From Candidatus Saccharimonadales bacterium (GTDB lineage: Bacteria > Patescibacteriota > Saccharimonadia > QS-5-54-17), in assembly GCA_040903985.1 (NCBI GenBank), contig JBBDUI010000002.1, positions 262,038 through 326,037 of the forward strand: DNA of 64,000 nt. The letters are read 5' to 3'. This document shows, one piece after another, positions 8,615 through 53,939 of the stretch. Position 1 is the first letter of the stretch; each line of letters starts with the position of its first letter. The position numbers and the translations under genes were made by a program. The notes under the pieces were generated by a model that worked only from the letters and a program-made list of their open reading frames with translations, did not search any database and had not been told where the DNA came from.

Positions 8615-8746
8615 CCTGCCTCACTTTTCTCTAGTTCTCTTGTCCACTACTATAGCGCTTGTGGTTATGAGGGTCAAAGCAAGGACGCTTAACTATTTCC
8701 TATGTTTCAGCTACTATAGCGAGAACTAACCTGTGAGGTTTTACCT

Positions 8747-8953: not shown

Positions 8954-9071
8954 GCTAATGAATATATGACGAGAACTCACTGCATTCTATTTAGCCGCAA
9001 TCTACATTGTGCTATTATTAATTCTCTTTTAGATTTATAATTAAAGTTAACAATTCAAGCTGGGAGCAGCA

Positions 9072-9302: not shown

Positions 9303-9304
9303 TC

Positions 9305-10117: not shown

Positions 10118-10428
10118 ATCCCTGCATCTACCTCATCGAAGCTGTGGGGAATACCCAAATAGTATTTTCGTGGTAGAGAAAGTCCGAAAAAGTTGGCACA
10201 AAGCCCTGAACGAGTTAAAGCACTGAAGGGGTGTGCTGGGAGGAGACTACCAGAAACATAAGTTACACGCTCGAGCTTTTTCTTCAGACACATATCCCTA
10301 GCCTAAGTAGCATCCGCTCTTCCTGCTTTCACTTAATACAACTACTCCCGTGTAGTTGTGGATAGTAGTGATCTTTTAGTTCGTTAACCCCGTACATGAC
10401 GAACCACTTCCTTAGTTATCTACGTTAC

Positions 10429-10629
10429 CTACCACCGGTCTTTAGTCCATGTATTATAAATAGCCTTAATACTTACGAAAAGAAGCCCAAGAGCCAACAA
10501 AATACCGAATAAACTACCTGTTAGTGCTCCAGCATTATCTTCTGGACGAATTGACCCAAGAAACTCACCTAAAAGAGATAGGGAGAATAGACTTAAGAGG
10601 CCCCATAAAGCTATCTTTATAAATCTCAC
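10429..10629 (-). CDS. Hypothetical small membrane protein (two TM segments)
   Basis: 66 aa, strongly hydrophobic. Confidence 0.3.
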   Translation of the reverse strand: MRFIKIALWGLLSLFSLSLLGEFLGSIRPEDNAGALTGSLFGILLALGLLFVSIKAIYNTWTKDRW

Positions 10630-10830
10630 TGTGCCCTCCGTTGATTATATAACTTACTATTTATAAGCAAACACTTTGCTCTTAGCTCAAAAGTAAAATT
10701 GTTTACCATCAGTAATGTTTTAAGGGTACCATATTATGGGAATCGTTTATCTTTCTGCTCGCTCATGGTTCGCCTGCGGCTCACTCAAAGTATCCTAAAG
10801 CTGCCGCTGTCAGCTTTAGACCTCGCGGGC

Positions 10831-10900
10831 GCGATTCCCCTCTCGAAAACTAAACCAATGAAAAAGCCCGACTATGGTCGGGCACTTTCATTGGTGGAGC
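10831..10900. repeat. Direct repeat R3. It is a roughly 85%-identical copy of the tmRNA 3' terminus (gctccacca), the terminator hairpin and about 37 nt of downstream flank.
   Basis: Hand-aligned to 12601..12672 with about 60 of 70 identical positions. It contains the same AATGAAAAAGCCCGAC...GTCGGGCACTTTCATT hairpin. Confidence 0.7.
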
Positions 10901-11118
10901 ACCTCGAAAAAAGTTCACCCCTCATTATAGATGAGGTGCATCGGTGGCGGGATTTACTCTGGAACGACTATAAATACAAGCAAAAACGCTCAACAGAGAT
11001 AGATAACCCCTGAGGGTATACCACCTTATTCATTTTATAAAGATTGTACTATTTCAGTACGAGTCCTATGATGAGTGTTAGATGCATCGTGTATCTAACT
11101 TAATTATATCATTTTGGG

Positions 11119-12321
11119 TTAGCTTGCTATAAATCTCTTAATCCTAGAGACAACGTAATCCCTAATTAGTTGTTCTGACTGGCTAATTAGGTCCTTGTAC
11201 TCAGCCTTTTCGGTTGATGTTGCCTTACTGTAGCCATGAATTTCAATTTTGCCGTGAATGACTTCGTGTCTAGCATTAAACAGCTTCTCTATGTGCTTTA
11301 TGCAATTTTCTCTATCGGACTCGGTTTTTGAAATAGTCTCAGCTATTACAGGTGCCTTTTCGCTAATCGTCGGTACGATATTACTATTTGTTATACTGTG
11401 TTTCCTAGTTGGGAATAGTGAATCAACTACCGATACCAGAAAAACTAGTTGTAGGCTCCAATCTTCATTATTCAAGAACTCTAGGTACCAATAGAGAGCA
11501 TTACATAATTGAATCCGTGCATTTTCTTTATTTTTTGCAGATTGTTTTTTTGAAATATCCTTAAACAATGAATTTACGGCATTAATTCTATCCTTATCGT
11601 TCTTGAAAGAAAGCGTCGTAGCTCTAGAGGCTTTTAGCGGATTTTTGAAGTTTGAATTATATTTGTCATCTAACTTAAATACTCTCGGAGTGGGGGAATG
11701 TCTCCTAATACTATTTGTTGCGAGTGTGCCGAATACGACATGTAGCGAATAATAAAGTCCTACTAATCTATCTGGACTGTAATTTGATTCTAGAAATGCG
11801 TATTCTCCAGTCCTAACAAGACCTTTATCTTCAATGTAGAGGTACTTCTCGCCAACTTTAGGTATGTTATCGCCAAACATCTGCTCTCTCAAAGCTTTGG
11901 CAAGTCCCTGACCCTTAACTTCATTTTTACTTTTGAATTGGTTAAATCTTTTCTGGTCAACCTCAATTATCTTAATGCTATCAAGATCTTGCAGGCCACC
12001 ACAATAATCATCAGGTAATTGGTAATAAAATTTATAAATATAAGGAATTCCTGAAGCCAGCTTATGTATATCAGTTATGACTTTATCTTTTTCGGCAGCA
12101 GTCATGGCTCTAGATTCACGGTTAAAATCACTGACTTTGAAAGCACTTGTGATAAGCATGTTCCAGAAAAACGGCCAATCAATTGCCGAATCATAAAGCT
12201 TCAAATCCACTATCTTATATAGCGGGTCAAAATTAATTGTGTCCACATCTATAAAGCCATCATTTAGCTTAGCGTTGGATAAACTATTCTTTAGTAATAC
12301 TTCTGGATTCTGTCTGGCCAT
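11119..12321 (-). CDS. Hypothetical protein, island cargo. It may be an Abi-like protein with a C-terminal HEPN-like R-x4-H motif (NARHEVIHG).
   Basis: 400-aa ORF in AT-rich DNA bracketed by tmRNA-end repeats. The functional call rests only on the motif and the context. Confidence 0.5.
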   Translation of the reverse strand: MARQNPEVLLKNSLSNAKLNDGFIDVDTINFDPLYKIVDLKLYDSAIDWPFFWNMLITSAFKVSDFNRESRAMTAAEKDKVITDIHKLASGIPYIYKFYYQLPDDYCGGLQDLDSIKIIEVDQKRFNQFKSKNEVKGQGLAKALREQMFGDNIPKVGEKYLYIEDKGLVRTGEYAFLESNYSPDRLVGLYYSLHVVFGTLATNSIRRHSPTPRVFKLDDKYNSNFKNPLKASRATTLSFKNDKDRINAVNSLFKDISKKQSAKNKENARIQLCNALYWYLEFLNNEDWSLQLVFLVSVVDSLFPTRKHSITNSNIVPTISEKAPVIAETISKTESDRENCIKHIEKLFNARHEVIHGKIEIHGYSKATSTEKAEYKDLISQSEQLIRDYVVSRIKRFIAS

Positions 12322-12492
12322 ACTTACAAAATACTATACTGATACTTATTAATATATAACTGTGTCGTACAAATATTATTAACGGCGAATTTTATATAGA
12401 TAATTCTGCAAAAGTTCACACCCCCAAATTGAGCACAATTTACACCTTAGGAAAAAACAAAAAAGACCCCGAAGGATCAAATTTTGACAAAA

Positions 12493-12511
12493 TGGTGGAG
12501 CTGCGGGGAAT
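12493..12511. repeat. Direct repeat R2. It is a 19-nt copy of the tmRNA 3' end (ATTCCCCGCAGCTCCACCA on the minus strand) and looks like an att core.
   Basis: Identical to the 3'-terminal 19 nt of the tmRNA gene, located 170 bp downstream of it in the same orientation. Confidence 0.7.
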
Positions 12512-12629
12512 CGTATCATATTATGCTCGCTCGAAATGCGTTTCTCGCTCGGCCAAGCAAGGAATTCTTAAGCTGCCACCGGCAGCTTAAGCCCTCTCGG
12601 GTGCAATTCCCCACCACAAAACTAAACCA

Positions 12630-12663
12630 ATGAAAAAGCCCGACTATCGTCGGGCACTTTCAT
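12630..12663 (-). terminator. Rho-independent terminator immediately after the tmRNA CCA end
   Basis: On the minus strand it reads AUGAAAGUGCCCGAC-GAUA-GUCGGGCUUUUUCAUU, a GC stem followed by a U5 run. Confidence 0.75.
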
Positions 12664-13076
12664 TGGTGGAGCTGCGGGGAATTGCACCCCGGTCCGCAAG
12701 TTAACTTCCTATCCCGCTACGAGCGTATTCGGTTTGAAAAGTTTCAGATATTTCCCGATCAAACCGACAAAAAAGAACTATCTATAGTCACAGTAAAGCT
12801 TCAGGCGGTTCGCCTCTGACGTACGAACTGCCCTACACCGGATAAATGTCACCAGATTTCCGTTATCCAGTAATCACGGAATTGATGGCTGCGGCGGTTA
12901 GGCTACAGCTGTCGCAAGGTTTCGAGGAGTCATAGCCTCAGAAACTGAAGCTAGAAAACTGTTCACCTTACTAGTAAATGTGTTTACATTTATTTGGGTT
13001 GGTCCAACTAACGTGTAGACCGAACCGGCTCGCTGAATAGGTTGTCAAAATACTCACGTCGAAGCTAATCAGCCCC
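12664..13076 (-). ncRNA. ssrA: tmRNA (SsrA), standard one-piece form, about 413 nt
   Basis: The 5' end GGGGCUGAUUAGCUUCGACG... matches the E. coli 5' end (GGGGCUGAUUCUGGAUUCGACGGG). The 3' end ...CGGGGUGCAAUUCCCCGCAGCUCCACCA gives a T-arm and an acceptor strand with the G3·U70 alanine identity pair. An internal tag frame ends ...GCG ACA GCU GUA GCC UAA. Confidence 0.85.
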
Positions 13077-19001: not shown

Positions 19002-19237
19002 AATGCAAGATCGCCTGTAAGCCGGATTCTGTTTGCTTAAACGCCCGTTGCCGAGCGTGAAGCAAGATGACTATCTCTCTAGTCCCGCGATTGCTCGTGG
19101 GATCAAGCGGGTAAAATATGTTTGCCACCGCCTGGGCTAAGCGTATGGTGACTCACTCCTTGCAGCGGACGGGGTTTACCTCCTGCCGATGTCACCACCG
19201 GTAGCTGTGGGCTCTTACCCCACTCCTTTCACCCTTA

Positions 19238-19367
19238 CCCCGCACCTGAAAATGATAGTGCTGGCGCACAAATGTAACCTCATACCAACCATATAACAGG
19301 GGTGATTATACCTTTACTGTTGCACGGAAGTTGATGATTGCAAGATCAATCATTTTCAGGTGCGGGG
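19238..19367. mobile_element. Miniature (non-coding) copy of the TIR element. It has 19-bp perfect terminal inverted repeats CCCCGCACCTGAAAATGAT / ATCATTTTCAGGTGCGGGG and sits at the P12 position of rnpB.
   Basis: The TIRs are identical to those of the GIY-YIG element 90 bp away. The 92-bp interior has no ORF. Confidence 0.7.
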
Positions 19368-19453
19368 CGGTATCGTTTCTGTGGCACTTTCCCTAAGGTC
19401 TCCCTCGGTTGTCGTTAACAACCGTCCTGCCCATGCGCTGTCCGGACTTTCCT

Positions 19454-19752
19454 CCCCGCACCTGAAAATGCTAACCAAAGCCGAGCCTCTTCTTCAGCTC
19501 TACAAGTCCTCGACCATAACGTTTGAGCTTACGCTCTCGTTCTTGAGCCAAGGCTTTGGTTGTAAAAGCCTCATAGTAGACAAGCTCCCAGGGTACACCA
19601 CTCTTTGTGGACGTATTCATACCTTGGTTATGTTGATGAAATCGCCGTTTCAAATCTGCCGTAGATCCGATATAGAACGTACCTGTCTTTTTACTGCGCA
19701 AGAGGTAGACATAATACATAGCGATTTCATCATAGCATTTTCAGGTGCGGGG
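19454..19752. mobile_element. TIR-bounded GIY-YIG element (299 bp). It has 20-bp perfect TIRs CCCCGCACCTGAAAATGCTA / TAGCATTTTCAGGTGCGGGG and sits at the P3 position of rnpB.
   Basis: The perfect 20-bp inverted repeats enclose one 82-aa GIY-YIG ORF. The ORF stop codon lies inside the TIR. Homologous elements are at 63276..63577 and (miniature) 19238..19367. Confidence 0.75.
19471..19719 (-). CDS. GIY-YIG nuclease-family protein (YhbQ/COG2827-like, 82 aa) encoded inside the TIR element
   Basis: MYYVYLLRSKKTGTFYIGSTADLKRRFHQHNQG... has the GIY...YIG motifs and a conserved R and H/N, as in E. coli YhbQ. It is on the same strand as rnpB. Confidence 0.75.
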   Translation of the reverse strand: MYYVYLLRSKKTGTFYIGSTADLKRRFHQHNQGMNTSTKSGVPWELVYYEAFTTKALAQERERKLKRYGRGLVELKKRLGFG

Positions 19753-41475: not shown

Positions 41476-42270
41476 CTATAGACCGGAGAGGCGCAAATAC
41501 CAATCGACTATTCCCTCGCCCCAGAGTAATGCTATCCAGGCCCCGAGTAGTAGAAACGGTCCGAACGGTATTAAATCCTGACGACTACGCCAGCCCAGGC
41601 CGATTAGAAGCAGACTGATGACAGCCGCTAAGTTAAAGGCCAGCAGTAAGCCGAGGGCCATCAGCTGCCAACCTAACAGGAGTCCGAGGATAAAGACTAG
41701 TTTGACGTCCCCGCCCCCCATCCAGGCACCGCGACCCAGCACGTGCAAACCATAGAATAAAGCTAACGCTCCGGAGGCGCCAATTAAAGGATCGACCAGC
41801 CAGCTGGCGAGCAATGCACCCGAGAAGGCCTGAGTCAGGAGAAAAACGATAACCACGCCAAGTAGTGCTTTCAGTAATCGGTTAGGCAGCAGCATCCAGC
41901 GCAGATCATAAACGGCCAGGGCTACAAAAAGCCCGGAGATAACGATCCAAATTCCCAGCTGAACGGCATCGGTTAGGTTACTCGGCTGCCAGGCTAATGT
42001 ACTAAGAGCGGCGGCTACACCCACTATCAGTTCCACTACGGGGTACTGTCTAGAGATAGGCTTGCTACAGTGACGGCATCTACCCCTCAGCCACAACCAG
42101 CTCACTACCGGTAGTAGATCCAGGGCAGTGAGCAGATGTTTACACCGCGGACACAACGAGCGCCCATGGCTGATAGACCGCTTGGTGTGCACCCGCCAGA
42201 TATAGGCGTTCATAAAACTACCGATCACCAACCCGAACAACGCGGCAAAGACCGGGTAGGCCAGCGGCAC
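41476..42270 (-). CDS. pilD: Prepilin peptidase (A24 family)
   Basis: 264 aa. The N-terminal CxxC...CxxC zinc motif (CPRCKH...CRHCSK), polytopic topology and GGGDVKL are present. Confidence 0.8.
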   Translation of the reverse strand: MPLAYPVFAALFGLVIGSFMNAYIWRVHTKRSISHGRSLCPRCKHLLTALDLLPVVSWLWLRGRCRHCSKPISRQYPVVELIVGVAAALSTLAWQPSNLTDAVQLGIWIVISGLFVALAVYDLRWMLLPNRLLKALLGVVIVFLLTQAFSGALLASWLVDPLIGASGALALFYGLHVLGRGAWMGGGDVKLVFILGLLLGWQLMALGLLLAFNLAAVISLLLIGLGWRSRQDLIPFGPFLLLGAWIALLWGEGIVDWYLRLSGL

Positions 42271-42275
42271 GTCCC

Positions 42276-43343
42276 TTAGCCTCGCATTAGACGGTCAAGC
42301 TCTTGAATATCGACGGCATAGTTCTTAGCTTCATCATAGGTGATCTTGCCCGCATGAATTAACTCCACCAACGTCTTATCCATCGACTGCATGCCCTGGT
42401 CCGCCCCGGTCTGGATCACGGAGTCGAGCTGGTGGGTCTTACCCTCACGAATGATATTACGTACAGCCGGGTTAGCGATTAAGATTTCGGTCGCCGGTAT
42501 ACGCCCACCTCCGATAGCCGGGACTAGACGCTGAGAAATTACACCCTTTAAGATCGAAGCTAGCTGCACACGGACCTGCTGCTGCTGGTGCGGCGGGAAG
42601 ACATCGATGATACGATCCACGCTCTGCGAAGCGGAGTTGGTGTGCAAGGTAGCAAACACCAAATGGCCGGTCTCGGCAATAGTGATAGCGGCGGCGATGG
42701 TTTCTAGATCGCGCATCTCTCCAATTAGCACGATATCCGGATCTTGACGCAAGGTCGACCGTAAAGCGGCGGCAAAGGAGTAGGTATCATAGTGGACCTC
42801 GCGCTGAACGATAACCGCTTTCTTACTGGTATGAGCATACTCGATTGGATCCTCAATGGTAATGATATGAACAGCCCGGGTAGTATTGATCTGATCGATC
42901 ATCGCCGCTAGCGTAGTCGACTTACCACTACCGGTCGGACCGGTCATTAACACCAGGCCGCGGGGGAATTCAGTAAAGCTGTTAACTACCTTAGGCAGGC
43001 CCAGTTCCTCAATCGTCTTAATCTCATTAGTAATTAGACGTAAGGCAGCGGCCATATTGCCCCGTTCGTGAAAGGCATTTACCCGAAATCGCCCAAGGTC
43101 GCCGAAGGCAAAGGAAAAATCCAGTTCCTTATCTTTAGTTAAGATCTGTTTCTGCTCCTCATCAACGATAGAGTAAAGCAGACCCTCTACTGTCTCTTCA
43201 TCTAGTGGCACCGCATCTTGGGCAGCGACCAGAGACCCGTCCAGGCGGAGCATCGGCGGTAACCCTACCTGTAAGTGGAGGTCCGAAGCACCCTTATCTA
43301 TCACTTCCTGTAGCAAAACTTCGATCCTGAGATTACTCTGCAT
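42276..43343 (-). CDS. pilT: Twitching motility / pilus retraction ATPase PilT
   Basis: 355 aa. Walker A is GPTGSGKSTT. PilT-size hexameric ATPase, adjacent to pilB. Confidence 0.85.
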   Translation of the reverse strand: MQSNLRIEVLLQEVIDKGASDLHLQVGLPPMLRLDGSLVAAQDAVPLDEETVEGLLYSIVDEEQKQILTKDKELDFSFAFGDLGRFRVNAFHERGNMAAALRLITNEIKTIEELGLPKVVNSFTEFPRGLVLMTGPTGSGKSTTLAAMIDQINTTRAVHIITIEDPIEYAHTSKKAVIVQREVHYDTYSFAAALRSTLRQDPDIVLIGEMRDLETIAAAITIAETGHLVFATLHTNSASQSVDRIIDVFPPHQQQQVRVQLASILKGVISQRLVPAIGGGRIPATEILIANPAVRNIIREGKTHQLDSVIQTGADQGMQSMDKTLVELIHAGKITYDEAKNYAVDIQELDRLMRG

Positions 43344-43364: not shown

Positions 43365-45155
43365 TTACGCATCTGACGCTACCCGCATGACCTCTTCTAG
43401 GGTGGTCACACCGTTCAAAGCCTTGAGGTAGCCGTCCTGTTTCATGGTTATCATGCCGTCCTTCTGAGCCTGAAGCTGTACCTGAGTACTGGTGGTCTGA
43501 CTAGCTAGTAGCTTCTCCATCTCCGGTGTAATCGAGAAGACTTCGAAGATGCCGGTTCGTCCCTTGTAACCGTCCTGGCACTCACTGCAGCCCTTGCCTC
43601 TGTACAAAGTATAAGCGTTTTCACCTAATGAGGGCAAGTTCTCATAACCCAAGTCTTCACGTAGCTGCGCATCGGCCGTACCCGACTCCGGTAGTATCCC
43701 CTCCATCGACTTCCTGATCGACTCTACTTCCGCCGGCGAAGCCTCATAGCTCTCCGAGCACTTATCACAAATACGACGCACAAGTCGCTGTCCGATGATG
43801 GTATTAACCGTAGAGGCAATCAAGAAAGGTTCGATACCCATATCGATCAACCGGGGCAGAACACCAGAGGCCGAGTTAGTGTGCAGGGTCGAGAGCACTA
43901 CGTGTCCGGTCAAAGCCGCCTGCACCGCCAAATCAGCCGTCTCGCTATCTCGAATTTCCCCGATCATCACTACATCTGGGTCTTGACGCAAGATCGAGCG
44001 TAAGCCGCTGGCAAAAGTTAAACCGACCTGGGGGTTGACCTGCATCTGATTCACCCCATTCATCTTATATTCGACCGGATCTTCCAAAGTGATAATGTTA
44101 ATCGCCACTTCCTTAATAGTGTTGAGTGCAGCATACAAGGTCGTCGACTTACCACTACCGGTCGGACCGGTCGAAAGCGTCATACCGTGCGGACGCTTCA
44201 ACCCTTCACTAATAAGCCGTTTAGCCCGCCCAACATAACCGAGCGATTCGATACTGAGTAGGCTGGAATCTTTATCCAAGAGACGAATGACTACCTGTTC
44301 ACCCCATACTAAAGGCGCGATCGAGATACGTAAATCGATGTCACGACCCTGATGCTCGATCTGAAACTCACCGTCTTGAGGAATCCGGTGCTCGTCGATC
44401 TTTAGATTGGCAAGAATCTTTACGCGAGATACCAGAGCGGCTTCGACCTCTTTCGGTAGCGTCATGGTATCCTGCAGGATACCATCGACGCGGAAACGAA
44501 TCTTCAGCTCTTCTTCCCGTGGCTCCATGTGGATATCGGAAGCTTCCATCTGAGCGGCATAATCTAATATTGTGTTCAACGCCCGCGTAATTGGAGCGTC
44601 CTGAACTAAAGTCTTGACCTCTTGTGACCCGTTGGCCTGAAGTTTATCCTGATGCGCCTGTTCGGCTTGAGCAAACTCGTCGGCCGAACCGACTACGGCA
44701 GAGACTTCTTCTGAGACATCCGCCTTATACTGGGAGAGGACGGCATTAATGCTTTTACCCGAAACCATATGTGGTGTGACCGGGCGGCCAAGTTTACGCG
44801 TAATAAAGTCCACCGCTTGCAGGTTGGTCGGATCGATCATGCCGACCACCAATCGCCCCTCCATCACTCCAATCGGTACCACCTGATGACTGCGCGCCAA
44901 ATCCTTGGGAATCAGTTTCTTCAGCTCATCGTCGACCTGAAAGCCCTGTAAGTTAGCATAAGGCACGTTATCGGCCTTAGCTACCGTCTGTACTACCTTC
45001 TCCTCGTCAATCAAACGCCGCTCGGAAATTAGACTGAGAATAGATTTATTTGTCTCGGCCGATTCGCGCTGTAGATCCTTGAGTTGATCGGCAGAGAGAT
45101 AGCCCTGATCCAGAAGTAACTGCTCAAATGTCTTTTGGGCTTCACCGGTTAACAC
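43365..45155 (-). CDS. pilB: Type IV pilus assembly ATPase PilB (GspE family)
   Basis: 596 aa. It has the N-terminal GSPII_E_N domain, the Walker A GPTGSGKSTT and the C-terminal zinc-binding CxxC...CxxC (CDKC...CSEC). Confidence 0.85.
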   Translation of the reverse strand: MLTGEAQKTFEQLLLDQGYLSADQLKDLQRESAETNKSILSLISERRLIDEEKVVQTVAKADNVPYANLQGFQVDDELKKLIPKDLARSHQVVPIGVMEGRLVVGMIDPTNLQAVDFITRKLGRPVTPHMVSGKSINAVLSQYKADVSEEVSAVVGSADEFAQAEQAHQDKLQANGSQEVKTLVQDAPITRALNTILDYAAQMEASDIHMEPREEELKIRFRVDGILQDTMTLPKEVEAALVSRVKILANLKIDEHRIPQDGEFQIEHQGRDIDLRISIAPLVWGEQVVIRLLDKDSSLLSIESLGYVGRAKRLISEGLKRPHGMTLSTGPTGSGKSTTLYAALNTIKEVAINIITLEDPVEYKMNGVNQMQVNPQVGLTFASGLRSILRQDPDVVMIGEIRDSETADLAVQAALTGHVVLSTLHTNSASGVLPRLIDMGIEPFLIASTVNTIIGQRLVRRICDKCSESYEASPAEVESIRKSMEGILPESGTADAQLREDLGYENLPSLGENAYTLYRGKGCSECQDGYKGRTGIFEVFSITPEMEKLLASQTTSTQVQLQAQKDGMITMKQDGYLKALNGVTTLEEVMRVASDA

Positions 45156-45200: not shown

Positions 45201-46238
45201 CTAGACAAACGACCGTTGGGCCAGCCCGACGGCGACCGCGAACTGCAAGGATTTACCCATCAGCATATCCTGCTGAGCAGCCGGATAACTAACGTTCATC
45301 CAGGGATTAGCAATCTCGACCGGCAGATTAAGGGTGTTGGCGACGTAAGAGGGCATTTCCGGTAAGGCGGTAGGTCCGCCAGTTAGAACTACCTTCTCCA
45401 GCGCTACACCGGCATTCTGGCTGGTAAAAAACTTAATTGATTTCGATATTTCACTCATCACGCTGTCTAAGCTACCCTTAACGGCCTTGAGTACCTGGCC
45501 TTCTAGCTTAGTCTGAGTAACACCAAACTTCTGCAGGAACTGACTGGCCTGCTCCTCGTCGATGTTGAGATTCTGAGCTACTGAACGCACTAGGGTCGCT
45601 CCGCCGATATTAACGGAACGCACCAGATGCGGTACCCGCTGCCAGATGACCGTAATCTCCGTACTGGTATTACCAAAGTCGACTACTGCTACCGGCACTT
45701 CGGTTACACTAATCACGCTACGACCGGTAGCTAGAGCGTTAATCTCCAGTGCATGTAGGTTAAGCCCAGCCTTTTCTACCACAGAGAGATACTTATCGAC
45801 GACATTCTTCGGGGCCGCTACTAGTAGTACCGACATTTCAGTCTCGCTCTTATTCGGATCGATGATGTGCCAGTCCAGCTTAGCCTCGCTCACCGGCATC
45901 GGTATATACTGATCGGCCTGTAGCTGAATCGACTTAGCTAGCTCACTCTCACTTAACTTCGGCGTAGTGATTACAGTGGTAAAGGCGTGAGCGGAGGGGA
46001 TCGCCGTAACAACCTCGTTGGTCTTAATCTGAGTCTCATCTTTCAACTGTCGGATAACGGCAGCGATCCGGTCATGATCAATCTCAGAATCACTACTGAT
46101 TAAATCGGCTGGAGCAGCCATCGCTCCGTACGCTACTAAGGCCGGTGCACCAGCACCAGCCTTAAGCTGTACCATGCGAATGCCGGTAGTACCGATATCA
46201 AGTCCGAAATAATCTGTGTTTTTATCTAAGATAGCCAT
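45201..46238 (-). CDS. pilM: Type IV pilus assembly protein PilM (actin-like ATPase fold)
   Basis: 345 aa. The FtsA/PilM-like fold begins FGLDIGTTGIRMVQL. Confidence 0.75.
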   Translation of the reverse strand: MAILDKNTDYFGLDIGTTGIRMVQLKAGAGAPALVAYGAMAAPADLISSDSEIDHDRIAAVIRQLKDETQIKTNEVVTAIPSAHAFTTVITTPKLSESELAKSIQLQADQYIPMPVSEAKLDWHIIDPNKSETEMSVLLVAAPKNVVDKYLSVVEKAGLNLHALEINALATGRSVISVTEVPVAVVDFGNTSTEITVIWQRVPHLVRSVNIGGATLVRSVAQNLNIDEEQASQFLQKFGVTQTKLEGQVLKAVKGSLDSVMSEISKSIKFFTSQNAGVALEKVVLTGGPTALPEMPSYVANTLNLPVEIANPWMNVSYPAAQQDMLMGKSLQFAVAVGLAQRSFV

Positions 46239-46279: not shown

Positions 46280-46957
46280 TTAACCCCCGTGCTGAGGCAA
46301 TAAATAACGGATGTTAATCGCCTCACGTCGCATAGCTATCCAGTCGATAATCGACTCCCCTTCAGTTATCTCACCTTGTTCATCTAGCTCCTGACTAAGC
46401 TTAAACTGCAGGATCTGAGTACGCACCTGTCGTCGCACCATATCATCCCCCACCCCATGACTTGCTAGCTGCTCACTCAATTCTGTGTCACTGCCGTATA
46501 AATGCTCCAAATTGATATCGATCTCGGCCGCACTAACCGTTAGCCCTCGTTGATACGATTCGAGCTCGACGATCTTAGCGTTAATTAAACTCTCAATCGA
46601 CTGTAGGTCGATCTGCTCCTGCGTAATGGTGCTATCGGCGTCCGGTGACTCATAGGCAATCAAACCATCGAGGTAGCGCACCTGATCTAGATAGACCGAG
46701 TAACGCAGCGACTCCCCCTCCACCATAGCAGCCGGAAATGGCACTATCTGTGACACGACATGGGTAAACCGATTCTGGCGGCCGGAACCATATATACTAA
46801 CTATCGCTACCGCAAGCGCTACGATTACGGCGACAATTATAACCTTAGCTCCCTGGCGCAGGCCGGCTCGGTGATTATGAGCCCACTTCCGACCGTGATC
46901 GTATCCCTGCTTTAGCTCTTGTGGCCAGCTGGTAGGATTGGGCTGAGAGTCAGGCAT
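46280..46957 (-). CDS. Hypothetical membrane-anchored protein in the pilus cluster (SurA-N-like region)
   Basis: 225 aa with an N-terminal TM segment. After the TM it shares the motif IVPFPAAMVEG with the parvulin gene at 36054..37208 (IIPYPAACVDG). Confidence 0.35.
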   Translation of the reverse strand: MPDSQPNPTSWPQELKQGYDHGRKWAHNHRAGLRQGAKVIIVAVIVALAVAIVSIYGSGRQNRFTHVVSQIVPFPAAMVEGESLRYSVYLDQVRYLDGLIAYESPDADSTITQEQIDLQSIESLINAKIVELESYQRGLTVSAAEIDINLEHLYGSDTELSEQLASHGVGDDMVRRQVRTQILQFKLSQELDEQGEITEGESIIDWIAMRREAINIRYLLPQHGG

Positions 46958-47060: not shown

Positions 47061-48692
47061 CTATCTAACAAACTCGAGATAGTCGACCTCTAAGCAGCCG
47101 TACCCGGAGTAGTTAACTACGTAGTACAGATTGAATTGCGAACTGCCACTAACATTGAAGGTATAGGTGTTGTAACTAGTGCTAGATACTATATGGGTAG
47201 TGCCCACATAGTTACTGCCACCGTTGATGTTTATACGCATCCTGGGGCTACCTGAAGTACTACAGCGTCTTGCCCGCACCTCGATACTAGAGTAGTTATC
47301 CTGGGGCGTGAGGTACATCCCGACCCAAGAGTGCGACGGATTCATACGCTGGGCTTGACCGCCAGAAGCACTACCGTTGTTAACTACTACGGCACCCGAG
47401 TTGACATTAAAAGTTTCAGCCTCATAAATCTCCTCATCCGGCTCAGGCGGATCATCCTGAGGCAAATCAGGTAGAGTTGGTTCTTGGCCTTGATCGACAT
47501 TACCTGCCACTAAACAGTTACCCAGAGTATAGCCCGTGCCCGGTGCACTAGGTTCATCAACCTGCTGCACGCCGACCTTACAGACCGGCAGGACTGGATC
47601 GCCGGAGTAGAGTACGTAATCGAAAATACCCAGGATACGGCCGTTGCGCTCTTTCCGGGCCACGATACGCCGCCGGATATCTCCGGACTGACCCACTACA
47701 TCGATCAGCACGGTACTTCCAGGGATATACAGCGGCGGCTGAGTGCTGCCAGGCTGGTGGGAATTAAGTCGAGTATCGATCAGCTTAGTCCGGTAGCTGA
47801 CCTGGTAAGCATTTGGATTCGAATCAGAGGCTCCGGCAAAAAGTGGTCGAACCCGAAAGATGTAGCGCCGACTGGTATCGGTGGTCGTAATGTCGATACA
47901 GTTAGCGTAGAGATCCTGCTCGGTCGGGTTGGTACCGGCCACGCTAATATTTATAAACCGACCCGACTGAACATTAGAAACTTCGGAGAACACATACTTC
48001 TCCGTCTCGATGGCCCCGGCGTTGTTACTCGGATACGAAAGAACGGTTAGCTCCAGATCCGGCAGTACAGTTACATTTCCCGGGCCTTTAGGTGTCCAGC
48101 AGTACTCGATTCCCCCAAAAGCCGCATGGATCGAGCTGCCGTCACTGTCTGTACCGTCGTTACCATAGATCGTGCCGTTAATCTCCCGACGTAATTCAGT
48201 AGTATCGAGCTGAATCGACTCATCTTTTACCTGCGTACCCAGCGGCGCCAAGGGCTCTTCATACACTCGCCGTTGCCGCCAGGACAGTCGACCGAAGATA
48301 TCGGCATGGTCGGACTCCGGATCCGCCGCGATACCGAGCGAACCACCCAAGTTACTTCCTCCATCACTATCAGTTAACTGCATACGATCACCATGCTGAG
48401 AACCACCATTAGCACCGTTAGTGTACTGTTCAGGAAATATCTCGGCCAGCTCCAATTCGACACTTGTATTGGCATCCAGGCGACGGCTGGCCTCTTCGAC
48501 ACCGGCTTCGGCCGCATAGTAAGCCGCGTCTGATAGATCGACTTCACTGGCCTGTGAGAGCTCACTAATCGCTAGCCGCGAGGCCACCACCGTAGTTGTC
48601 ATGAGTAAAATAGACATGATCATTACCAGATAGAGCGCTACACTACCCTGACTATCCATCCGGTGTTGCGGCTGCAGACTACGTACTATCAT
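47061..48692 (-). CDS. PilX-N-like pseudopilin-related protein with a C-terminal carbohydrate-binding-module-like (CBM6/35-type) domain. It is a candidate pilus-associated adhesin.
   Basis: 543 aa. It has an N-terminal hydrophobic PilX_N-like segment (SVALYLVMIMSILLMTTTVVASRLAISE). Its C-terminal ~130 aa (YEAETFNVNSGAVVVNNGSASGGQAQRM...YVVNYSGYGCLEVDYLEF) resemble CBM6/35 beta-sandwich lectins. Confidence 0.55.
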   Translation of the reverse strand: MIVRSLQPQHRMDSQGSVALYLVMIMSILLMTTTVVASRLAISELSQASEVDLSDAAYYAAEAGVEEASRRLDANTSVELELAEIFPEQYTNGANGGSQHGDRMQLTDSDGGSNLGGSLGIAADPESDHADIFGRLSWRQRRVYEEPLAPLGTQVKDESIQLDTTELRREINGTIYGNDGTDSDGSSIHAAFGGIEYCWTPKGPGNVTVLPDLELTVLSYPSNNAGAIETEKYVFSEVSNVQSGRFINISVAGTNPTEQDLYANCIDITTTDTSRRYIFRVRPLFAGASDSNPNAYQVSYRTKLIDTRLNSHQPGSTQPPLYIPGSTVLIDVVGQSGDIRRRIVARKERNGRILGIFDYVLYSGDPVLPVCKVGVQQVDEPSAPGTGYTLGNCLVAGNVDQGQEPTLPDLPQDDPPEPDEEIYEAETFNVNSGAVVVNNGSASGGQAQRMNPSHSWVGMYLTPQDNYSSIEVRARRCSTSGSPRMRININGGSNYVGTTHIVSSTSYNTYTFNVSGSSQFNLYYVVNYSGYGCLEVDYLEFVR

Positions 48693-49216
48693 CGTCGCGG
48701 CACCACTGTAGTTGTCGTCTCGTACTCATAGTAGTAAGGATCCGTCTCAACTAAGCCGGCTTGGGGCTGGGCACTACGCATATACAGCCGCAAAGGACTG
48801 GTAGCGGAAGATCCGGTAGCGATAACTTCTAGCTCAAAGTCGATTACCCTAATCACACCGCTCGTTAGGTTCTCTCCGGCAGTGGCCGAAGTCGGACAAC
48901 TCACCCCGCACTGCACTCGATAAATTCCATCGTCAACTATATAAGTGTAGCGGACTTGGGCGGACGGGGTCAGAGCGTTAGGCAGTAGGATCTGTCGCCC
49001 GTTATCACTCAGTGAGTAGGTATTGGCGTTACGGACATCACGTGTGATGGTCTCCAGGGCATACCGAGTAGTTTGCTGGACGTTACGTACCGACTCTGCC
49101 TTCTCCTGCAGGCGCACAATTGAGATAAAGCCCATAGTGGCCACCATCATGGTCACCGATAAGATAGCCATACTTATCGCCACCTCAACCAGGGTGAAAC
49201 CGTGCTGATTATTCAT
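48689..49216 (-). CDS. Prepilin-type N-terminal cleavage/methylation domain protein (minor pilin-like)
   Basis: MNNQHGFTLVEVAISMAILSV is the class III signal peptide G|FTLVE. Confidence 0.7.
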   Translation of the reverse strand: MNNQHGFTLVEVAISMAILSVTMMVATMGFISIVRLQEKAESVRNVQQTTRYALETITRDVRNANTYSLSDNGRQILLPNALTPSAQVRYTYIVDDGIYRVQCGVSCPTSATAGENLTSGVIRVIDFELEVIATGSSATSPLRLYMRSAQPQAGLVETDPYYYEYETTTTVVPRR

Positions 49217-49835
49217 AGGTAGCTCCTAGCGGAGTCGAGAGTACGCTGCGATAAACGAGCTCTCGCCGGGGCGGACCGGCCTCCTGCCATAACACTCTTA
49301 CTTCCACATCGTAGAGGAACTGGCTGGTCTGGTAGCCGCCCTGAGCCACTCCGTCTACCAGGTCCACGCTATACTCTTCTGTCTCGCATAGCTCGATAAC
49401 CCGCTCAAAGTTATCGAAGCCAACATAATCGCCACCGCTGGCAAAGTCACTCTGCTGATAAGCCGTTGGCTCCTGATAACTACTAGTCGGCTCCAGCCGC
49501 CAGCCGGTATCACTCTCTTCATCGCCCACCACTACAAAGGAAAAGCAACGGCTGCCGCTACCTTGAGCCGGCACGTTAGCCAGTAAATCGGTAATTAACA
49601 GCGTACTCTCACCACCCCCCCGCTCGGCTAGCCCGTCACGGTGATTTCGTAAGGTCTCCAGCTCACGCATTGCTAAGGCTGTCGCCTGAGTCCGCCTACC
49701 AGACTCAGTAGTTAATCGTGTAGTGCTGGTAGCTAAAGCGCCGGAGGCAGCCATGGCGATAGCTAGCAGCGCGATAGCGATTACCACCTCAATTAAGGTT
49801 AAGCCGGTTTGATCTTTAGTTAATCTAAGCTGCAT
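49209..49835 (-). CDS. Prepilin-type N-terminal cleavage/methylation domain protein (minor pilin-like)
   Basis: MQLRLTKDQTGLTLIEVVIAIALLAIA contains G|LTLIE. Confidence 0.7.
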   Translation of the reverse strand: MQLRLTKDQTGLTLIEVVIAIALLAIAMAASGALATSTTRLTTESGRRTQATALAMRELETLRNHRDGLAERGGGESTLLITDLLANVPAQGSGSRCFSFVVVGDEESDTGWRLEPTSSYQEPTAYQQSDFASGGDYVGFDNFERVIELCETEEYSVDLVDGVAQGGYQTSQFLYDVEVRVLWQEAGPPRRELVYRSVLSTPLGATYE

Positions 49836-49838
49836 CTA

Positions 49839-50534
49839 TTACTGTACCCTCGTATCAATACTACCGTTTTTCGGATCATAGGTCACATAACCTACCAGGC
49901 TGGTCGCCTCATCTTCTAGCACAAAAGTGACCGGTACCTCTTGATCATAGGCGCGTACATTAGGGTCATAGGCGTTAGGATTACCGGGACTGGCATTTAC
50001 ATAGTGTTGATCGGCGGTGTATGCACGACCATCCGGAGCCAGCAGAGCTAGCGATAACTCGCCGTGAGTAGACGCACACATAGCACCGACGTTTGATGAT
50101 AAGTCCGCTAGGTTACAGTTACTGCCGATACCGCTGAGATTCAAGCCGATATCAGTTAGGCGGTATTCCTGCCGGATCTGTTTTCCGGTCAGACCCAAGC
50201 GCTGATCGATATTATTGCTAAAACGTGAGATATCTTGCCCTAACAGTAAGTACTGCCGGTAGAGATCACCGCCGACACTATACTCGAGCACGTTGCCTCG
50301 CCAGTAGCAGTCAGCTCCTTCCGCGCAGCTACCGACCTGCGATGAGTAAGCGTTTACCTCAGCCTCTGTAATGGCGTTGGCAAACTCGTTGACGTTACCA
50401 CTGAAGCGCTCGATAGCTATATTGCTAGTACCGGAACCAACTAAAGTCATGGTAAAAATACCGATGATTGCTAGCACCACCACTATTTCGATTAAGGTGT
50501 AGCCGTCTGAGTTGAATAGTCGGTTTTTTTTCAT
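49839..50534 (-). CDS. Prepilin-type N-terminal cleavage/methylation domain protein (minor pilin-like)
   Basis: MKKNRLFNSDGYTLIEIVVVLAIIGI contains G|YTLIE. The start was set at the internal Met, because the track ORF carries a 14-aa artefactual extension. Confidence 0.65.
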   Translation of the reverse strand: MKKNRLFNSDGYTLIEIVVVLAIIGIFTMTLVGSGTSNIAIERFSGNVNEFANAITEAEVNAYSSQVGSCAEGADCYWRGNVLEYSVGGDLYRQYLLLGQDISRFSNNIDQRLGLTGKQIRQEYRLTDIGLNLSGIGSNCNLADLSSNVGAMCASTHGELSLALLAPDGRAYTADQHYVNASPGNPNAYDPNVRAYDQEVPVTFVLEDEATSLVGYVTYDPKNGSIDTRVQ

Positions 50535-50619
50535 GTTTCCGGTCTGGGTTATGTTTACGCTTATAGTAACATACACTGGTCATATCTGACTCCTGTATGT
50601 TGCGCCGCGGTGTAACGAT

Positions 50620-51051
50620 TTACTGGTTGCGAATATCTACTTCGCCGCCGACTTCCAAGCAGACACCTAGATCGTAGCTGCGACCGCCGTCCGAGCGGGA
50701 ATAGGTTATCTGATAGGTATCACCATCCTCAGTACTACAAGCATCGGCATCAAAGGCTCCAATTCGCGTGTACTTAAACCCGCCGACATCACCTTCAAGT
50801 TCCGGCAAATAGTCATCGATCTCGTCAATAACAGCGGTATTAGCTGGGTACTCGCCGCCGTTATTTGCAGAATATGACTCAAGGGCGGCGGCAATCTGGC
50901 TAGCCTCTTGGCGCCGCGTGCTGTCCCGCTGATTACGCTGAGCGGAGGAAATGGCGTTTAAGACTACTAGAATAATTAAAGCACCGATGGCTAGAACGAT
51001 AACTACTTCGATTAGGGTAAATCCGCGACTGTTTTTGGCTTTTTCTAGCAC
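50620..51051 (-). CDS. pilA: Type IV pilin (probable major pilin, PilA-like)
   Basis: 143 aa. MLEKAKNSRGFTLIEVVIVLAIGALIIL contains G|FTLIE with Glu5. The size is typical of major pilins. Confidence 0.7.
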   Translation of the reverse strand: MLEKAKNSRGFTLIEVVIVLAIGALIILVVLNAISSAQRNQRDSTRRQEASQIAAALESYSANNGGEYPANTAVIDEIDDYLPELEGDVGGFKYTRIGAFDADACSTEDGDTYQITYSRSDGGRSYDLGVCLEVGGEVDIRNQ

Positions 51052-51134: not shown

Positions 51135-52355
51135 CTACCGTATATTTGAGACGAGATTATAGATCGGCAGTAGTACGGCCGCTACTAAGAAAGCTACGAT
51201 TCCACCTAGAACCACCATCGTGATCGGCTCGATTAGTGAGGATATATTTTCCATCGCCTCATCAACCTCGGACTCAAAGTAGCTAGCTACTCGGTTCATA
51301 CTATCGCCCACGCTACCGGTCTCTTCGCCGACCTCAATCATCTGACCTACTAACGGTAGAAACAGCGGGTTATTCTGAATCGGCTTCGAGATGGCGTCAC
51401 CGGACTTAACCCGCTCGGAGATCTCCTTAATAGCTCGCTCCAGATGGACGTTATTAATAGCTCGCGAGGTGATCTTTAAGGCCTGTAGCACCGACACCCC
51501 GCTGTTAATCAGTGAGGCCATCGTTCGGGTGAACCGCGCCATGTAGACCTTTTTGACGATGATGCTGACGGCCGGAATGTGCAATTTCAAACTATCGAAC
51601 GCGTCCCGACCCCTATCACTTTTAATGTAGGCTCGGCTGCCGTAAATCGCTAAAGCCAGCGCCGCGAGTACTACATAGAAGTATCCTTTAAAGAAATCAG
51701 AGATGGTGATTAGGATGTTGGTCAAACTCGGCAGTGGCTGGTTCAGCTCGACATACATGTTAGCTACCTGGGGAATCACCATGGTAATCATTAGACCAGT
51801 TACAGCCAACAGCACGATCAGTACCACAACCGGATAAGTTAGAGCACTACGCACCTTCGAACGAATCGCCTGATCCTTCTCCTCCTGATCTGCCAGGCGC
51901 AGTAAGGTCTCATCTAGATTACCGCTCATCTCCCCGGCCTCGACCATACTGATATAGATCATGTTAAAGACTTCCGGATACTGCGCCAACGAATTAGCTA
52001 GAGTTCCACCGCCCTGAATGTTGTTGCTCACCCCCTGCATGATCTTGCTCAGTTTCTGATTATCGATCTGCTGTACCAGGATCTGAAGCGCTTTAGCCAA
52101 TGGCAGACCGGCCCGGACCAGGGTCGCCAACTGACGGGTCAATATCACTCTATCCTTGGCCTTAATGCGACGTACATCCTGTACGTAGCGACGAAGCTTC
52201 TCCCCAAAATCCGACTCATCCAGCGGCTTAACCTCTACCGGGAACAAGTTCTTACTAACTAGTAGTTTAGCCGCTTCAGACGGGCTAGTAGCCTCTACTC
52301 GGGCCTTAACGACCTTGCCGTTAGTATCCTTGGCGATATAGGTATATTCCTGCAT
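51135..52355 (-). CDS. pilC: Type IV pilus inner-membrane platform protein PilC (GspF family)
   Basis: 406 aa with duplicated GspF domains and 3 TM segments. Confidence 0.8.
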   Translation of the reverse strand: MQEYTYIAKDTNGKVVKARVEATSPSEAAKLLVSKNLFPVEVKPLDESDFGEKLRRYVQDVRRIKAKDRVILTRQLATLVRAGLPLAKALQILVQQIDNQKLSKIMQGVSNNIQGGGTLANSLAQYPEVFNMIYISMVEAGEMSGNLDETLLRLADQEEKDQAIRSKVRSALTYPVVVLIVLLAVTGLMITMVIPQVANMYVELNQPLPSLTNILITISDFFKGYFYVVLAALALAIYGSRAYIKSDRGRDAFDSLKLHIPAVSIIVKKVYMARFTRTMASLINSGVSVLQALKITSRAINNVHLERAIKEISERVKSGDAISKPIQNNPLFLPLVGQMIEVGEETGSVGDSMNRVASYFESEVDEAMENISSLIEPITMVVLGGIVAFLVAAVLLPIYNLVSNIR

Positions 52356-52358: not shown

Positions 52359-52616
52359 CTAAAACGAGAAGGGGTTAGATTTACCGGTATCGGTTTCCAG
52401 ATTAGGCCGGTTGTCATTAGCCTGCTCGACCGCATTTAGCCCGTCGAGGTTAAAGTCGGTACTAAACTCTGTACTGCGCGGGGTGATGGGACCTGGCTCG
52501 GTACTGGAGGAAGATAGGGCAAAGTAGGCTACCGCTATAAGAGCGATCACTACTAAGACTGCTACCTCATTCACAGTACGGCGCTGTTCCCGAGTTAGTT
52601 TATCTAGGACTTTCAT
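52359..52616 (-). CDS. Hypothetical small membrane protein in the pilus operon
   Basis: 85 aa with one TM segment, between pilO and pilC. Confidence 0.35.
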   Translation of the reverse strand: MKVLDKLTREQRRTVNEVAVLVVIALIAVAYFALSSSSTEPGPITPRSTEFSTDFNLDGLNAVEQANDNRPNLETDTGKSNPFSF

Positions 52617-53260
52617 TCTTGACCTCCTAGCTCATCCGCATCATCCGGTGAGATATTCTGGTAGTAGGCATCTAGGGTTAACGTCAGATTAAGTGCACTA
52701 TCGGCAATAACATCACCGGAACTGCCCGAAGCGCTAAAACTACGTACCTCGATGAAACGAGAACTACTCTCAAGTTGATCCAAGAAACTAGTGATGGCTT
52801 CGTATGAGCCAGTCAGGTTCACCGTGGCACTATAGTTAGTGTAAGTACCGGTCTCATCCTGGCTGGCTACACTACCGCTTCCGGCTATCGTCTCTGGGCG
52901 GAAATTACTTAGTAGAACGTTGTTATCTTGCGCCAGGCTACCGAGCAAAGCGATCAGGTACTGCTCTTCATTCTCTTCCGGTAGCAGGCTTAAGATTTCG
53001 TCACGCTGATCGAGCACGGAATCATAGTTCTCGCGTAGCCGTTGTGTATCGTCGATTAGTTTCTGTAGATTATCATTCTGCTCTAGGATCTGCGCTCGCT
53101 CGGTTCGGGTAGCCTGAAGGTTTGTATAAGCCGGACGGATCAAAAGATAACCAACTAAAGCCGCCACGACAAGGCCACCCAGCAGATACAAACCAAGTAA
53201 GTTATTGAGACTCATATCGTTGAGCTTCTGCTTCATGTTCTGAATCGAATTATTCATCAT
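52613..53260 (-). CDS. pilO: Type IV pilus assembly protein PilO-like
   Basis: It has an N-terminal TM segment and a coiled-coil (LQATRTERAQILEQNDNLQKLIDDTQRLRENYD), and lies downstream of pilN. The start was set at an internal Met, because the long track extension overlaps pilN. Confidence 0.55.
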   Translation of the reverse strand: MMNNSIQNMKQKLNDMSLNNLLGLYLLGGLVVAALVGYLLIRPAYTNLQATRTERAQILEQNDNLQKLIDDTQRLRENYDSVLDQRDEILSLLPEENEEQYLIALLGSLAQDNNVLLSNFRPETIAGSGSVASQDETGTYTNYSATVNLTGSYEAITSFLDQLESSSRFIEVRSFSASGSSGDVIADSALNLTLTLDAYYQNISPDDADELGGQE

Positions 53261-53939
53261 TCTCTCCCGGTGCGGCGGGTTCGGCTGCACCACTATCTTG
53301 CGCCGGAGTCGACCCCTCTGTTTCCGCAGCATCATCCTCCGGCACTTCTTCCTCCTCAGCCACCGGCCGTAACGGCACATAGCCGGCCTGAAGCTCGAAA
53401 TTAACTGCCCCGGCATCAGCTAGAGAAGCACCGAAGAGGGCTACATCACGAAAGTAGCCGAGAGTATCACGGTTAGTCTCAGCCCGAACGGCAGAATTCT
53501 TCATTGCCTGCTCGAACTCTCCGACCGCTTGGTACGATCGGGCCGTACCACTGATACTAATCGCTCCGTCACGGCCATAGATTAAATCTCGTACTCTCAC
53601 ATTGGCCGTCGAGGTATCAGCTAGTACTTGCAGGAACTGACCGGCCGATTGTCGATCGACAAAGAGCTGGGCTAAAGCCTCCAGACTGGACTGAACTGCT
53701 AACGCTTCTTCTCTAAAAGCTACACTCTCTTCCGAATTAGCGATACTCTCCAAGCGCTGCTGCTCATCGACCGCATTATTGCGCATCACTACCTGCACTC
53801 GAGCGACCGCAAAAACCCCCAGCCATATTGCTAAGAATAGTCCTAGCCAAGCTAAAACAGATAGATTAGCGATATGTCGGATGCGCGCCTGTCGTCGTCG
53901 TTCTAGAACTACGTCAGGAAGTAAGTTTATTTTTACCAT
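53250..53939 (-). CDS. pilN: Type IV pilus assembly protein PilN
   Basis: MVKINLLPDVVLERRRQARIRHIANLSVLAWLGLFLAIWL contains the conserved INLLP motif and a TM segment. Confidence 0.7.
   Translation of the reverse strand: MVKINLLPDVVLERRRQARIRHIANLSVLAWLGLFLAIWLGVFAVARVQVVMRNNAVDEQQRLESIANSEESVAFREEALAVQSSLEALAQLFVDRQSAGQFLQVLADTSTANVRVRDLIYGRDGAISISGTARSYQAVGEFEQAMKNSAVRAETNRDTLGYFRDVALFGASLADAGAVNFELQAGYVPLRPVAEEEEVPEDDAAETEGSTPAQDSGAAEPAAPGENDE

Follow-up and report, generated by a model that had tools for sequence, protein, structure and literature searches.

How ultrasmall, episymbiotic Patescibacteria find their hosts and hold on to them is largely unknown, and type IV pili together with lectin-like minor pilins are leading candidates for this function. 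Here, we consider one gene of a type IV pilus locus (47061..48692, minus strand) in a stretch of 64,000 nt, referred to as the window, from the metagenome-assembled genome (MAG) of an uncultured Candidatus Saccharimonadales (TM7) bacterium. We interpret its product, a protein of 543 amino acids referred to as the target, as a PilX/GspK-class minor pilin with an appended module that resembles carbohydrate-binding modules (CBMs).

The closest described system is that of Nanosynbacter lyticus TM7x, in which "lectin-like minor pilins" have been reported (Grossman et al., bioRxiv 2024 / ISME J 2025; PMC12206443 / PMC11623550). In TM7x, the order pilV1-pilZ1-pilW1-pilX1 is found within TM7x_00415-00475, and PilX1 (TM7x_00475), which is matched by the pilX model of TXSScan, is the last and largest pilin of locus one, i.e. 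the locus that contains PilT. PilX1 has no predicted PilD signal, and its beta-jelly-roll resembles CBMs and L-type lectins; specifically, the comparison was with L-type lectins and CBM_E1, and the domain is absent from CD-search. PilX2 of the same organism, which has a beta-propeller, plays a part in binding to the host, and attachment is inhibited by rhamnose (PMC12206443 / PMC11623550). The locus described here is from the same phylum and has the same inventory, i.e. PilB, PilT, PilC, PilM/N/O, PilD and five pilins. Similarly to pilX1, the target gene is at the end of the minor-pilin cluster and is its largest gene, and, as for PilX1, the protein is matched by a pilX-type model only, lacks a canonical PilD signal and contains a jelly-roll domain. 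The target appears to be the positional and architectural counterpart of TM7x PilX1, the two proteins being likened by description and not by sequence alignment. By contrast to PilX1, the module of the target is present only in a minority of its own family, and the PilX1 jelly roll may match the conserved core body of the target family rather than the appended CBM36/60-like module.

Modular type IV pilins have also been described in other bacteria. In Streptococcus sanguinis, PilC carries a ConA-like lectin module and PilB a vWA module; among modular pilins, CBMs are frequent and many examples are from candidate phyla radiation bacteria (Raynaud et al., PNAS 2021; PMC8179133). As in the target, a pilin carrier is connected by a short linker to an effector module from a family that is not pilus-specific, and these proteins are predicted to be tip-exposed adhesins, as we propose for the target. 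However, they have the canonical N_methyl motif (IPR012902) with Glu5, while the target is of the PilX/GspK class and has neither. Moreover, their modules are ConA-like, PA14 or vWA, while the module of the target is from the CBM6/36/60 clan. Because the survey of these pilins required N_methyl, which is absent in the target, it would have missed this protein.

GspK of the type II secretion system (T2SS) and PilX of the type IVa pilus share with the target that they are the largest subunit, are last in the order H-I-J-K or FimU-PilV-PilW-PilX, and lack Glu5. However, GspK has an alpha-domain inserted in the pilin fold, while the body of the target is all-beta in the structural model and gave no Foldseek match to GspK, and neither GspK nor PilX has a separate appended C-terminal module. 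PilY1/PilC of Pseudomonas and Neisseria, CofB of enterotoxigenic Escherichia coli and ComZ of Thermus are large tip proteins that are present on a minor-pilin complex and provide binding specificity, as proposed for the target. Among these, PilY1 is not a pilin and has a beta-propeller, CofB and ComZ have other beta-domains, and none has a module of the CBM6/36/60 clan. Thus, lectin-like saccharibacterial PilX pilins and modular pilins have already been published and the principle is known. For this reason, what is added here is incremental: a PilX-class carrier with a module of the CBM36/60 clan, a subtype of this module with a reduced loop, and clear signs of an exchange of cassettes at a linker within one family.

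Probable assignment of the target to the PilX/GspK class

The open reading frame (ORF) of the target has an ATG start and coincides exactly, in its coordinates and in its C-terminal region (...EEIYEAETFNVNSGAVVV...YVVNYSGYGCLEVDYLEFVR, the last residues being YVVNYSGYGCLEVDYLEFVR), with the gene reported in an initial annotation of this DNA. Because an identical protein has been deposited at NCBI (WD467_01600, encoded on a contig of 747 kb in a Saccharimonadales MAG) and 25 homologues are detected at E<=1e-55, we consider this ORF a real gene. Four prepilin genes with the N_methyl motif (48689-49216, 49209-49835, 49839-50576 and 50620-51051; E=2e-5 to 2.9e-9) are present directly upstream. Thus, the target gene does adjoin four prepilin genes, as annotated, but is located directly downstream of these genes and not strictly among them. 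The ATG of the target gene overlaps by 4 nt (ATGA) with the stop of the minor pilin gene ahead of it, and the two genes upstream of the target overlap by 8 nt, which argues that the minor pilins are translationally coupled. The three upstream minor pilins match, in order, GspH, PilV/GspI/XpsI and GspJ/HpsC/ppd-type models, i.e. H, I/V and J/W, and the target is therefore in the K/X slot of the gspH-I-J-K / fimU-pilV-pilW-pilX order. In other words, a GspH/PilV/PilW-like minor-pilin operon ends with the target gene, which is translationally coupled to it. This operon is part of a complete type IV pilus locus in which every gene between 41.5 and 54 kb is on the minus strand, and the same gene order is found around target homologues in the loci L001, L002, L041 and L042, wherever the extent of the contig permits a view.

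The N-terminus of the target (MIVRSLQPQHRMDSQG|SVALYLVMIMSILLMTTTVV) starts with a polar leader (residues 1-16; 48645..48692) that is similar to a class III signal and that ends with ...MDSQG16 before SVALYLVMIMSILLMTTTVV, at a putative PilD site. The length of the leader varies among homologues, and Gly16 is invariant in the family, i.e. it is conserved in 26 of 26 sequences in alignment A1, which comprises the family sequences, and in 19 of 19 in alignment A3, the core alignment that includes distant relatives. The PilX_N-type region that follows (residues 16-66; 48495..48647) consists of a hydrophobic helix without Glu at position +5 and the motif AYYAAEAG, which is invariant across the family alignments. 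In the homologues aligned in A1 and A3, position +5 is occupied by Y, F, L or M, and never by Glu. Absence of Glu+5 is a hallmark, and indeed the rule, for tip subunits of the GspK/PilX class. The PilX_N-like hydrophobic segment on which the initial annotation was based is present at residues 17-37, although the match of the target to Pfam PilX_N (E=0.5-0.74) is below the cutoff. A Pfam scan did not find the N_methyl motif in the target, unlike in the four neighbouring pilins. In the AlphaFold2 (AF2) model of the full-length protein, which was generated from the 26-sequence alignment, the N-terminal helix spans ~60 residues (residues 15-74).

Further links of the target to PilX come from its homologues. 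PilX_N is matched by 12 of the 26 family members (E<=0.1; best 0.0016). With the two most conserved peptides of the family, AYYAAEAG and [IV]FD[YF]..YSG, a genome scan led to distant relatives in Patescibacteria and in other groups; nine of these were scanned, of which four pass the PilX_N cutoff (41.6, 40.2, 26.1 and 25.7 bits) and one, which shares the AYYAAEAG motif, is a genuine GspK of the T2SS. Moreover, a profile search with the core alignment A3 reaches remote matches with PF14341, which are named "Tfp pilus assembly protein PilX" by JGI. We conclude that the target very probably is a minor pilin of the PilX/GspK class. Thus, the earlier description of a PilX-like pseudopilin holds, with the caveat that it depends on the 12 matching relatives, the relatives that bridge to PilX_N above the cutoff, the JGI name and the K/X slot.

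The conserved core body of the target (residues 67-393; 47514..48494), delimited in alignment A1, is beta-rich and is modelled by AF2 with about 20 strands at a predicted local distance difference test (pLDDT) score of mostly 70-90. Its invariant residues in A1 are W138, R139, R141, D331, R341-R342 and FD357-358, and the conserved Cys residues are C198, C265, C371 and C393. In a Foldseek search with the full-length model, matches of the core to Cry5B, iota-toxin and ConA were rejected based on template modelling (TM) scores of 0.1-0.2 and a root-mean-square deviation >14 Å. With the same model, many lectins of the legume type (L-type, ConA-like) were matched along 200-250 columns and core residues ~100-360, but these matches are too weak for use (probability 0.3-0.5, TM ~0.2). 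These matches are worth mentioning because the jelly roll of TM7x PilX1 has been likened to L-type lectins, and, judged from the model, the conserved core body may be a lectin-like domain in its own right.

The C-terminal module and its exchange among homologues

The core body is followed by a disordered, Pro/Asp-rich linker (residues 394-417, LVAGNVDQGQEPTLPDLPQDDPPEPD; 47442..47513), which has the lowest pLDDT of the AF2 model (25-33) and at which modules are exchanged (see below), and by a C-terminal module of 126 amino acids (residues 418-543; 47064..47441), for which phmmer relatives, a profile, AF2 and Foldseek all point to a beta-jelly-roll of the CBM6/36/35/60 clan. The isolated module scores 18.2 bits against Pfam CBM60 (cutoff 28.2; E=0.0036) and 16.2 bits against Pfam CBM_6 (cutoff 28.9; E=0.013). 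With the module alone, a word-indexed search found no relatives and phmmer found nothing among PDB sequences; a nigrin b-like PDB match in a single-sequence phmmer search (E=0.19) was discarded as spurious because it involves the linker only. An exhaustive phmmer search of 1.84e9 representative proteins recovered only ten relatives of the module at E<=1e-3 (1.2e-8 to 8.6e-4). Seven of these ten were scanned, and in six of them the matched stretch is a CBM60/CBM_6 module. The carriers are proteins of the glycoside hydrolase (GH) families GH26, GH16 and GH39, the polysaccharide lyase (PL) family PL14, pectate lyases and related proteins. The alignment of these modules (A2) is full-length, with the common motifs EAE, ASGG, VRA[RK], G[AS]P and C...[VIL]D[YK], and the A2 profile matched PDB entries for CBM60 (2XFD/2XHH; E=1.5e-4) and for CBM35 of Xyn30D (4QB1; E=0.013).

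The AF2 model of the module, generated from the module alignment, is all-beta with 10 strands, a pLDDT of 81.2 and a predicted TM score of 0.80; in the full-length model, the module is only at pLDDT ~50. With the module model, Foldseek gave 162 PDB matches at E<=1e-3 with CBM6 and CBM36 first. These matches include 1GMM (6.5e-6) and 5FUI (TM 0.68) for CBM6, 1W0N (8e-6), 1UX7 and 7AY3 (TM 0.73) for CBM36, and 2WZ8 and 2W1W for CBM35, and the leading CBM matches have a probability of 1.00 and TM scores of 0.62-0.75. Thus, the C-terminal module almost certainly has the CBM-clan fold, and within the CBM6/35/36/60 clan it is nearest to CBM36 and CBM60. The initial annotation had assigned the domain to a CBM6/35 type and had named, as refutation, a predicted structure without a CBM beta-sandwich or an assignment of the domain to a known non-lectin family. 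The clan assignment is supported by sequence as well as by fold, and the prediction gave a CBM fold and no refutation.

The module is not a constant part of the family. Among the 26 first-round homologues, 21 stop 3-16 residues past the equivalent of C393, the last conserved Cys, and five have C-terminal extensions of 150-286 amino acids. When the profile search is included, 36 close homologues of the core are found at E<=1e-75, and four of these, i.e. the target, P0037, P0038 and P0045, have a CBM36/60-like module. In P0038 (PF16841) and P0037 this module is canonical; a reduced-loop version is found only in the target and P0045, and, within the nine-sequence tail set, P0045 is the sole close relative of the target module (35% identity, E 9e-8). 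Other homologues have CBM96 plus a disaggregatase repeat (P0004 and P0006), a discoidin/F5_F8_type_C domain (P0042) or a Gly-rich ALK_LTK_GRD domain (PF12810; P0002 and P0013), and the remaining ones, which are most of the 36, are module-free. The ALK_LTK_GRD domain has been described in receptor tyrosine kinases of animals; in P0002 (locus L001, 1177-3204) and P0013 it comprises ~280 amino acids in place of the CBM.

P0002 is 78-81% identical to the target in the core and has a wholly unrelated C-terminal module. Nucleotide homology between the two loci is 69% over 2.4 kb, includes both upstream pilin genes and ends at position ~47480 of the window, which corresponds to residue ~405 within the Pro/Asp linker. 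Thus, the C-terminus of this family is a swappable slot with the junction in the linker. A recent horizontal acquisition of the module is unsupported, as its GC content and its GC content at third codon positions (0.48 and 0.55, respectively) are the same as in the core and in the neighbouring genes. An artefactual fusion or a frameshift was rejected because the ORF is continuous, the DNA homology to the relative spans the core into the linker, and P0038, P0045 and P0037 have the same core-linker-CBM architecture.

We can speculate further, although we consider the following rather unlikely, that the C-terminal slot is a receptor-binding cassette for host or surface specificity that is exchanged at the linker in the same way as the tips of phage tail fibres, and that the reduced-loop module represents a new CBM subfamily in which Ca2+-mediated sugar binding was given up for a non-canonical ligand, e.g. 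a glycopolymer of the host cell wall. If this were true, sequence alone could, via the type of module, be used to predict the host range of episymbionts that are not in culture.

A candidate tip adhesin and its alternatives

We propose the following model for the function of the target. Together with the H/I/J-like minor pilins, the target would prime and cap the pilus. It would be processed by PilD, which is encoded in the locus, and its N-terminal helix would dock it atop the minor-pilin initiation complex and therefore place it at the distal filament tip, which is also the location of GspK and PilX. At the tip, the flexible linker would let the CBM-like module swing free, and the module could then bind a surface glycan, perhaps in the cell wall of a host bacterium or in a polysaccharide matrix. 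Because the locus contains PilT, the pilus is predicted to be retractile, and PilT-driven retraction would subsequently draw the cell onto the bound surface. Taken as a whole, we favour, with moderate confidence, the interpretation that the target is a cap-type PilX/GspK minor pilin with a glycan-binding module and a candidate tip adhesin. The locus provides a well-supported case of a tip-cap pilin bearing a recognizable CBM-clan module, and the finding that modules from several families of glycan binders replace each other at a defined linker offers a testable handle on specificity.

The interpretation as a glycan binder can be compared with the known Ca2+ sites of the clan. Two Ca2+ ions are bound in CBM36-1 (7AY3): Gln267, Glu269 and Asp376 coordinate the structural one, and Asp367 and Asp372 coordinate the one that binds the ligand (PMC9165906). 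These residues give the pattern D-x4-D-x3-D, which is the same in vCBM60 (ND-ATGR-D-VQV-DY); most relatives of the target module have a longer, Cys-containing loop (ND...C-DR[DN]-L.V-DY). CBM36 (1UX7, 1W0N and 7AY3) and CBM60 (2XFD), which are Ca2+-dependent xylan binders, have the same beta-jelly-roll as the target module and, also as in the target module, a structural Ca2+ site with an E-x-E close to the N-terminus and the Asp within the terminal VDY motif. However, they are carried by enzymes and not by a pilin, and the D-x4-D ligand pair is missing in the target. The residues of the structural site that are kept in the target are E-A-E (module residues 4-6) and the Asp of EVDY, which is invariant in alignments A2 and A4, and aromatic residues remain in the loops corresponding to the lining of the CBM36 pocket; the equivalences between Ca2+ sites are by sequence pattern and not by superposition.

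Several observations weigh against a role of the target as a glycan-binding tip adhesin. Its module reads NY-SGYG-C-LEV-DY, i.e. both ligand-site Asp residues are replaced and the DR[DN] triplet is deleted, with the same loss and deletion in P0045. For this reason, the canonical Ca2+-mediated sugar site of CBM36/60 has probably been lost, and binding would probably involve different loop residues; the module may bind via such residues, or it may bind something else. This loss of the canonical Ca2+/ligand Asp pair weakens the case for a tip adhesin. With respect to the carrier, the target scores 10.3-10.9 bits against PilX_N (PF14341) with a gathering score of 25.5, so that strict membership in PilX_N fails on the target sequence alone, and the target reaches neither the PilX_N cutoff nor those of the Pfam CBM families. 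Foldseek with the full-length AF2 model found no convincing PDB match for the core to GspK, PilX or any solved pilin. Because most family members are without any module, the module must be dispensable for pilus assembly. Finally, the locus of homologous type in TM7x, T4P-1, has been tied to twitching and essentiality and not to host binding (PMC12206443 / PMC11623550). Conversely, the exchange of glycan modules across the family and the published work on TM7x PilX1 and PilX2 strengthen the case for a tip adhesin.

One alternative is that the target is a PilX-class pilin at the tip, but that its jelly roll is not a lectin and instead binds a protein or another non-glycan ligand or serves as a structural spacer or shield. 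We regard this as unlikely, although as the most serious of the alternatives, because every detectable relative of the module is part of a carbohydrate-active enzyme and three of the four kinds of module found in the slot (CBM36/60-like, CBM96 and discoidin) are from carbohydrate-binding families. The module itself points in both directions: The target and P0045 both lack the Asp pair of the ligand site and have a deletion of the DR[DN] loop, while the structural Ca2+ residues are kept and the loops of the CBM36 pocket still have aromatics. In addition, the fold also serves in non-glycan binding, e.g. domain III of Cry toxins is among the Foldseek matches, and the Gly-rich ALK_LTK_GRD module of two relatives is not a known lectin.

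Alternatively, the module could be a genuine glycan binder with an environmental target, i.e. a plant, algal or biofilm polysaccharide, and function in anchoring to a matrix or to food rather than in recognition of a bacterial host. The closest relatives of the module, which are CBMs of GH26, GH16, GH39, PL14 and pectate lyase proteins acting on plant or algal polymers, would be in line with this idea, as would the CBM96 and discoidin modules of the homologues, which are typical of polysaccharide-degrading enzymes, and the trehalase encoded in the same window. However, cultivated Saccharibacteria are obligate episymbionts in which pili serve in host contact and in twitching on hosts, and nothing in the pilus locus points to polysaccharide use, making an environmental target improbable.

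That the target is not part of a filament, but a surface adhesin or assembly factor that is anchored in the membrane by its uncleaved helix and merely shares the pilin operon, is very improbable: Although the target has neither Glu+5 nor the N_methyl motif, its core fold matched no solved pilin, and SignalP gave no PilD site for TM7x PilX1 and PilX2 according to the authors of that study, the absence of Glu5 is normal for tip subunits of the GspK/PilX class, an invariant Gly16 is found at -1, as expected, the target gene fills the K/X slot in an operon with the order H-I-J-K and is translationally coupled there, and homology to PilX_N is bridged via relatives.

Other genes of the pilus locus and the window

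The three minor pilins encoded upstream of the target, all on the minus strand as the remainder of the locus, are a PilW/GspJ-like protein of 175 amino acids (48689..49216; G|FTLVE; N_methyl 2.9e-9; weak NCBIfam matches to HpsC, GspJ and ppd), a PilV/GspI-like protein of 208 amino acids (49209..49835; N_methyl; TIGR02523 PilV 2.2e-7, XpsI 4.4e-6) and a GspH/FimU-like protein of 245 amino acids (49839..50576; N_methyl; GspH 1.3e-4). The first gene of the pilin cluster (50620..51051) encodes the smallest pilin, which is the putative major pilin (143 amino acids; G|FTLIE; N_methyl 2.2e-8; GspG/ComGC-type matches). These genes are preceded by those for the platform protein PilC (51135..52355; T2SSF 4.4e-62) and the PilN- and PilO-like alignment proteins (52613..53939; PilO 3.3e-8; PilN 0.0015, which is below the cutoff). 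Downstream of the target are the genes for PilM (45201-46238; PilM_2 1.2e-48), the extension ATPase PilB (43365-45155; T2SSE with MshEN), the retraction ATPase PilT (42276-43343; T2SSE) and the prepilin peptidase PilD (41476-42270; Peptidase_A24).

Between the target gene and pilM, and at the same place in the related locus L002, a gene for a membrane-anchored SurA_N-like protein is present (46280..46957, minus strand; SurA_N_3 3.9e-7). This protein may be a chaperone for pilins or for the tip protein; to our knowledge, no SurA_N-like chaperone has been described for canonical type IV pilus loci. Between the genes for PilO and PilC, an ORF of 85 codons (52359-52616, minus strand) encodes a protein with one hydrophobic segment and without a Pfam match. 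Counterparts are found at the same position in L002 (93 amino acids) and L041 (88 amino acids), and this ORF is thus a conserved, unannotated component of the pilus locus. The listed ORF for PilO (52613-53416) overlaps that for PilN (53250-53939) by 167 nt, and its first ~50 residues are Arg/Lys-rich and of low complexity; the true start of PilO is probably an internal Met.

Outside the pilus locus, a stretch of low GC content (8600-12650; 0.39-0.44 compared to ~0.50 for the window) abuts a tmRNA gene (12664-13076, minus strand). It contains two large orphan ORFs, at 9305-10117 (plus strand, 270 amino acids) and 11119-12321 (minus strand, 400 amino acids), that have no Pfam or PADLOC match, and it may have arisen by integration of a genomic island at the tmRNA gene. 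Beside it, and in a reduced genome, lies the gene for a trehalase-family glycoside hydrolase (7346-8614, minus strand; PF01204, E=1.1e-83). Finally, a match to the class A RNA of RNase P (19002-19492, minus strand) comprises 491 nt compared to 367 positions in the model, and this RNA therefore has sizeable insertions relative to the consensus.

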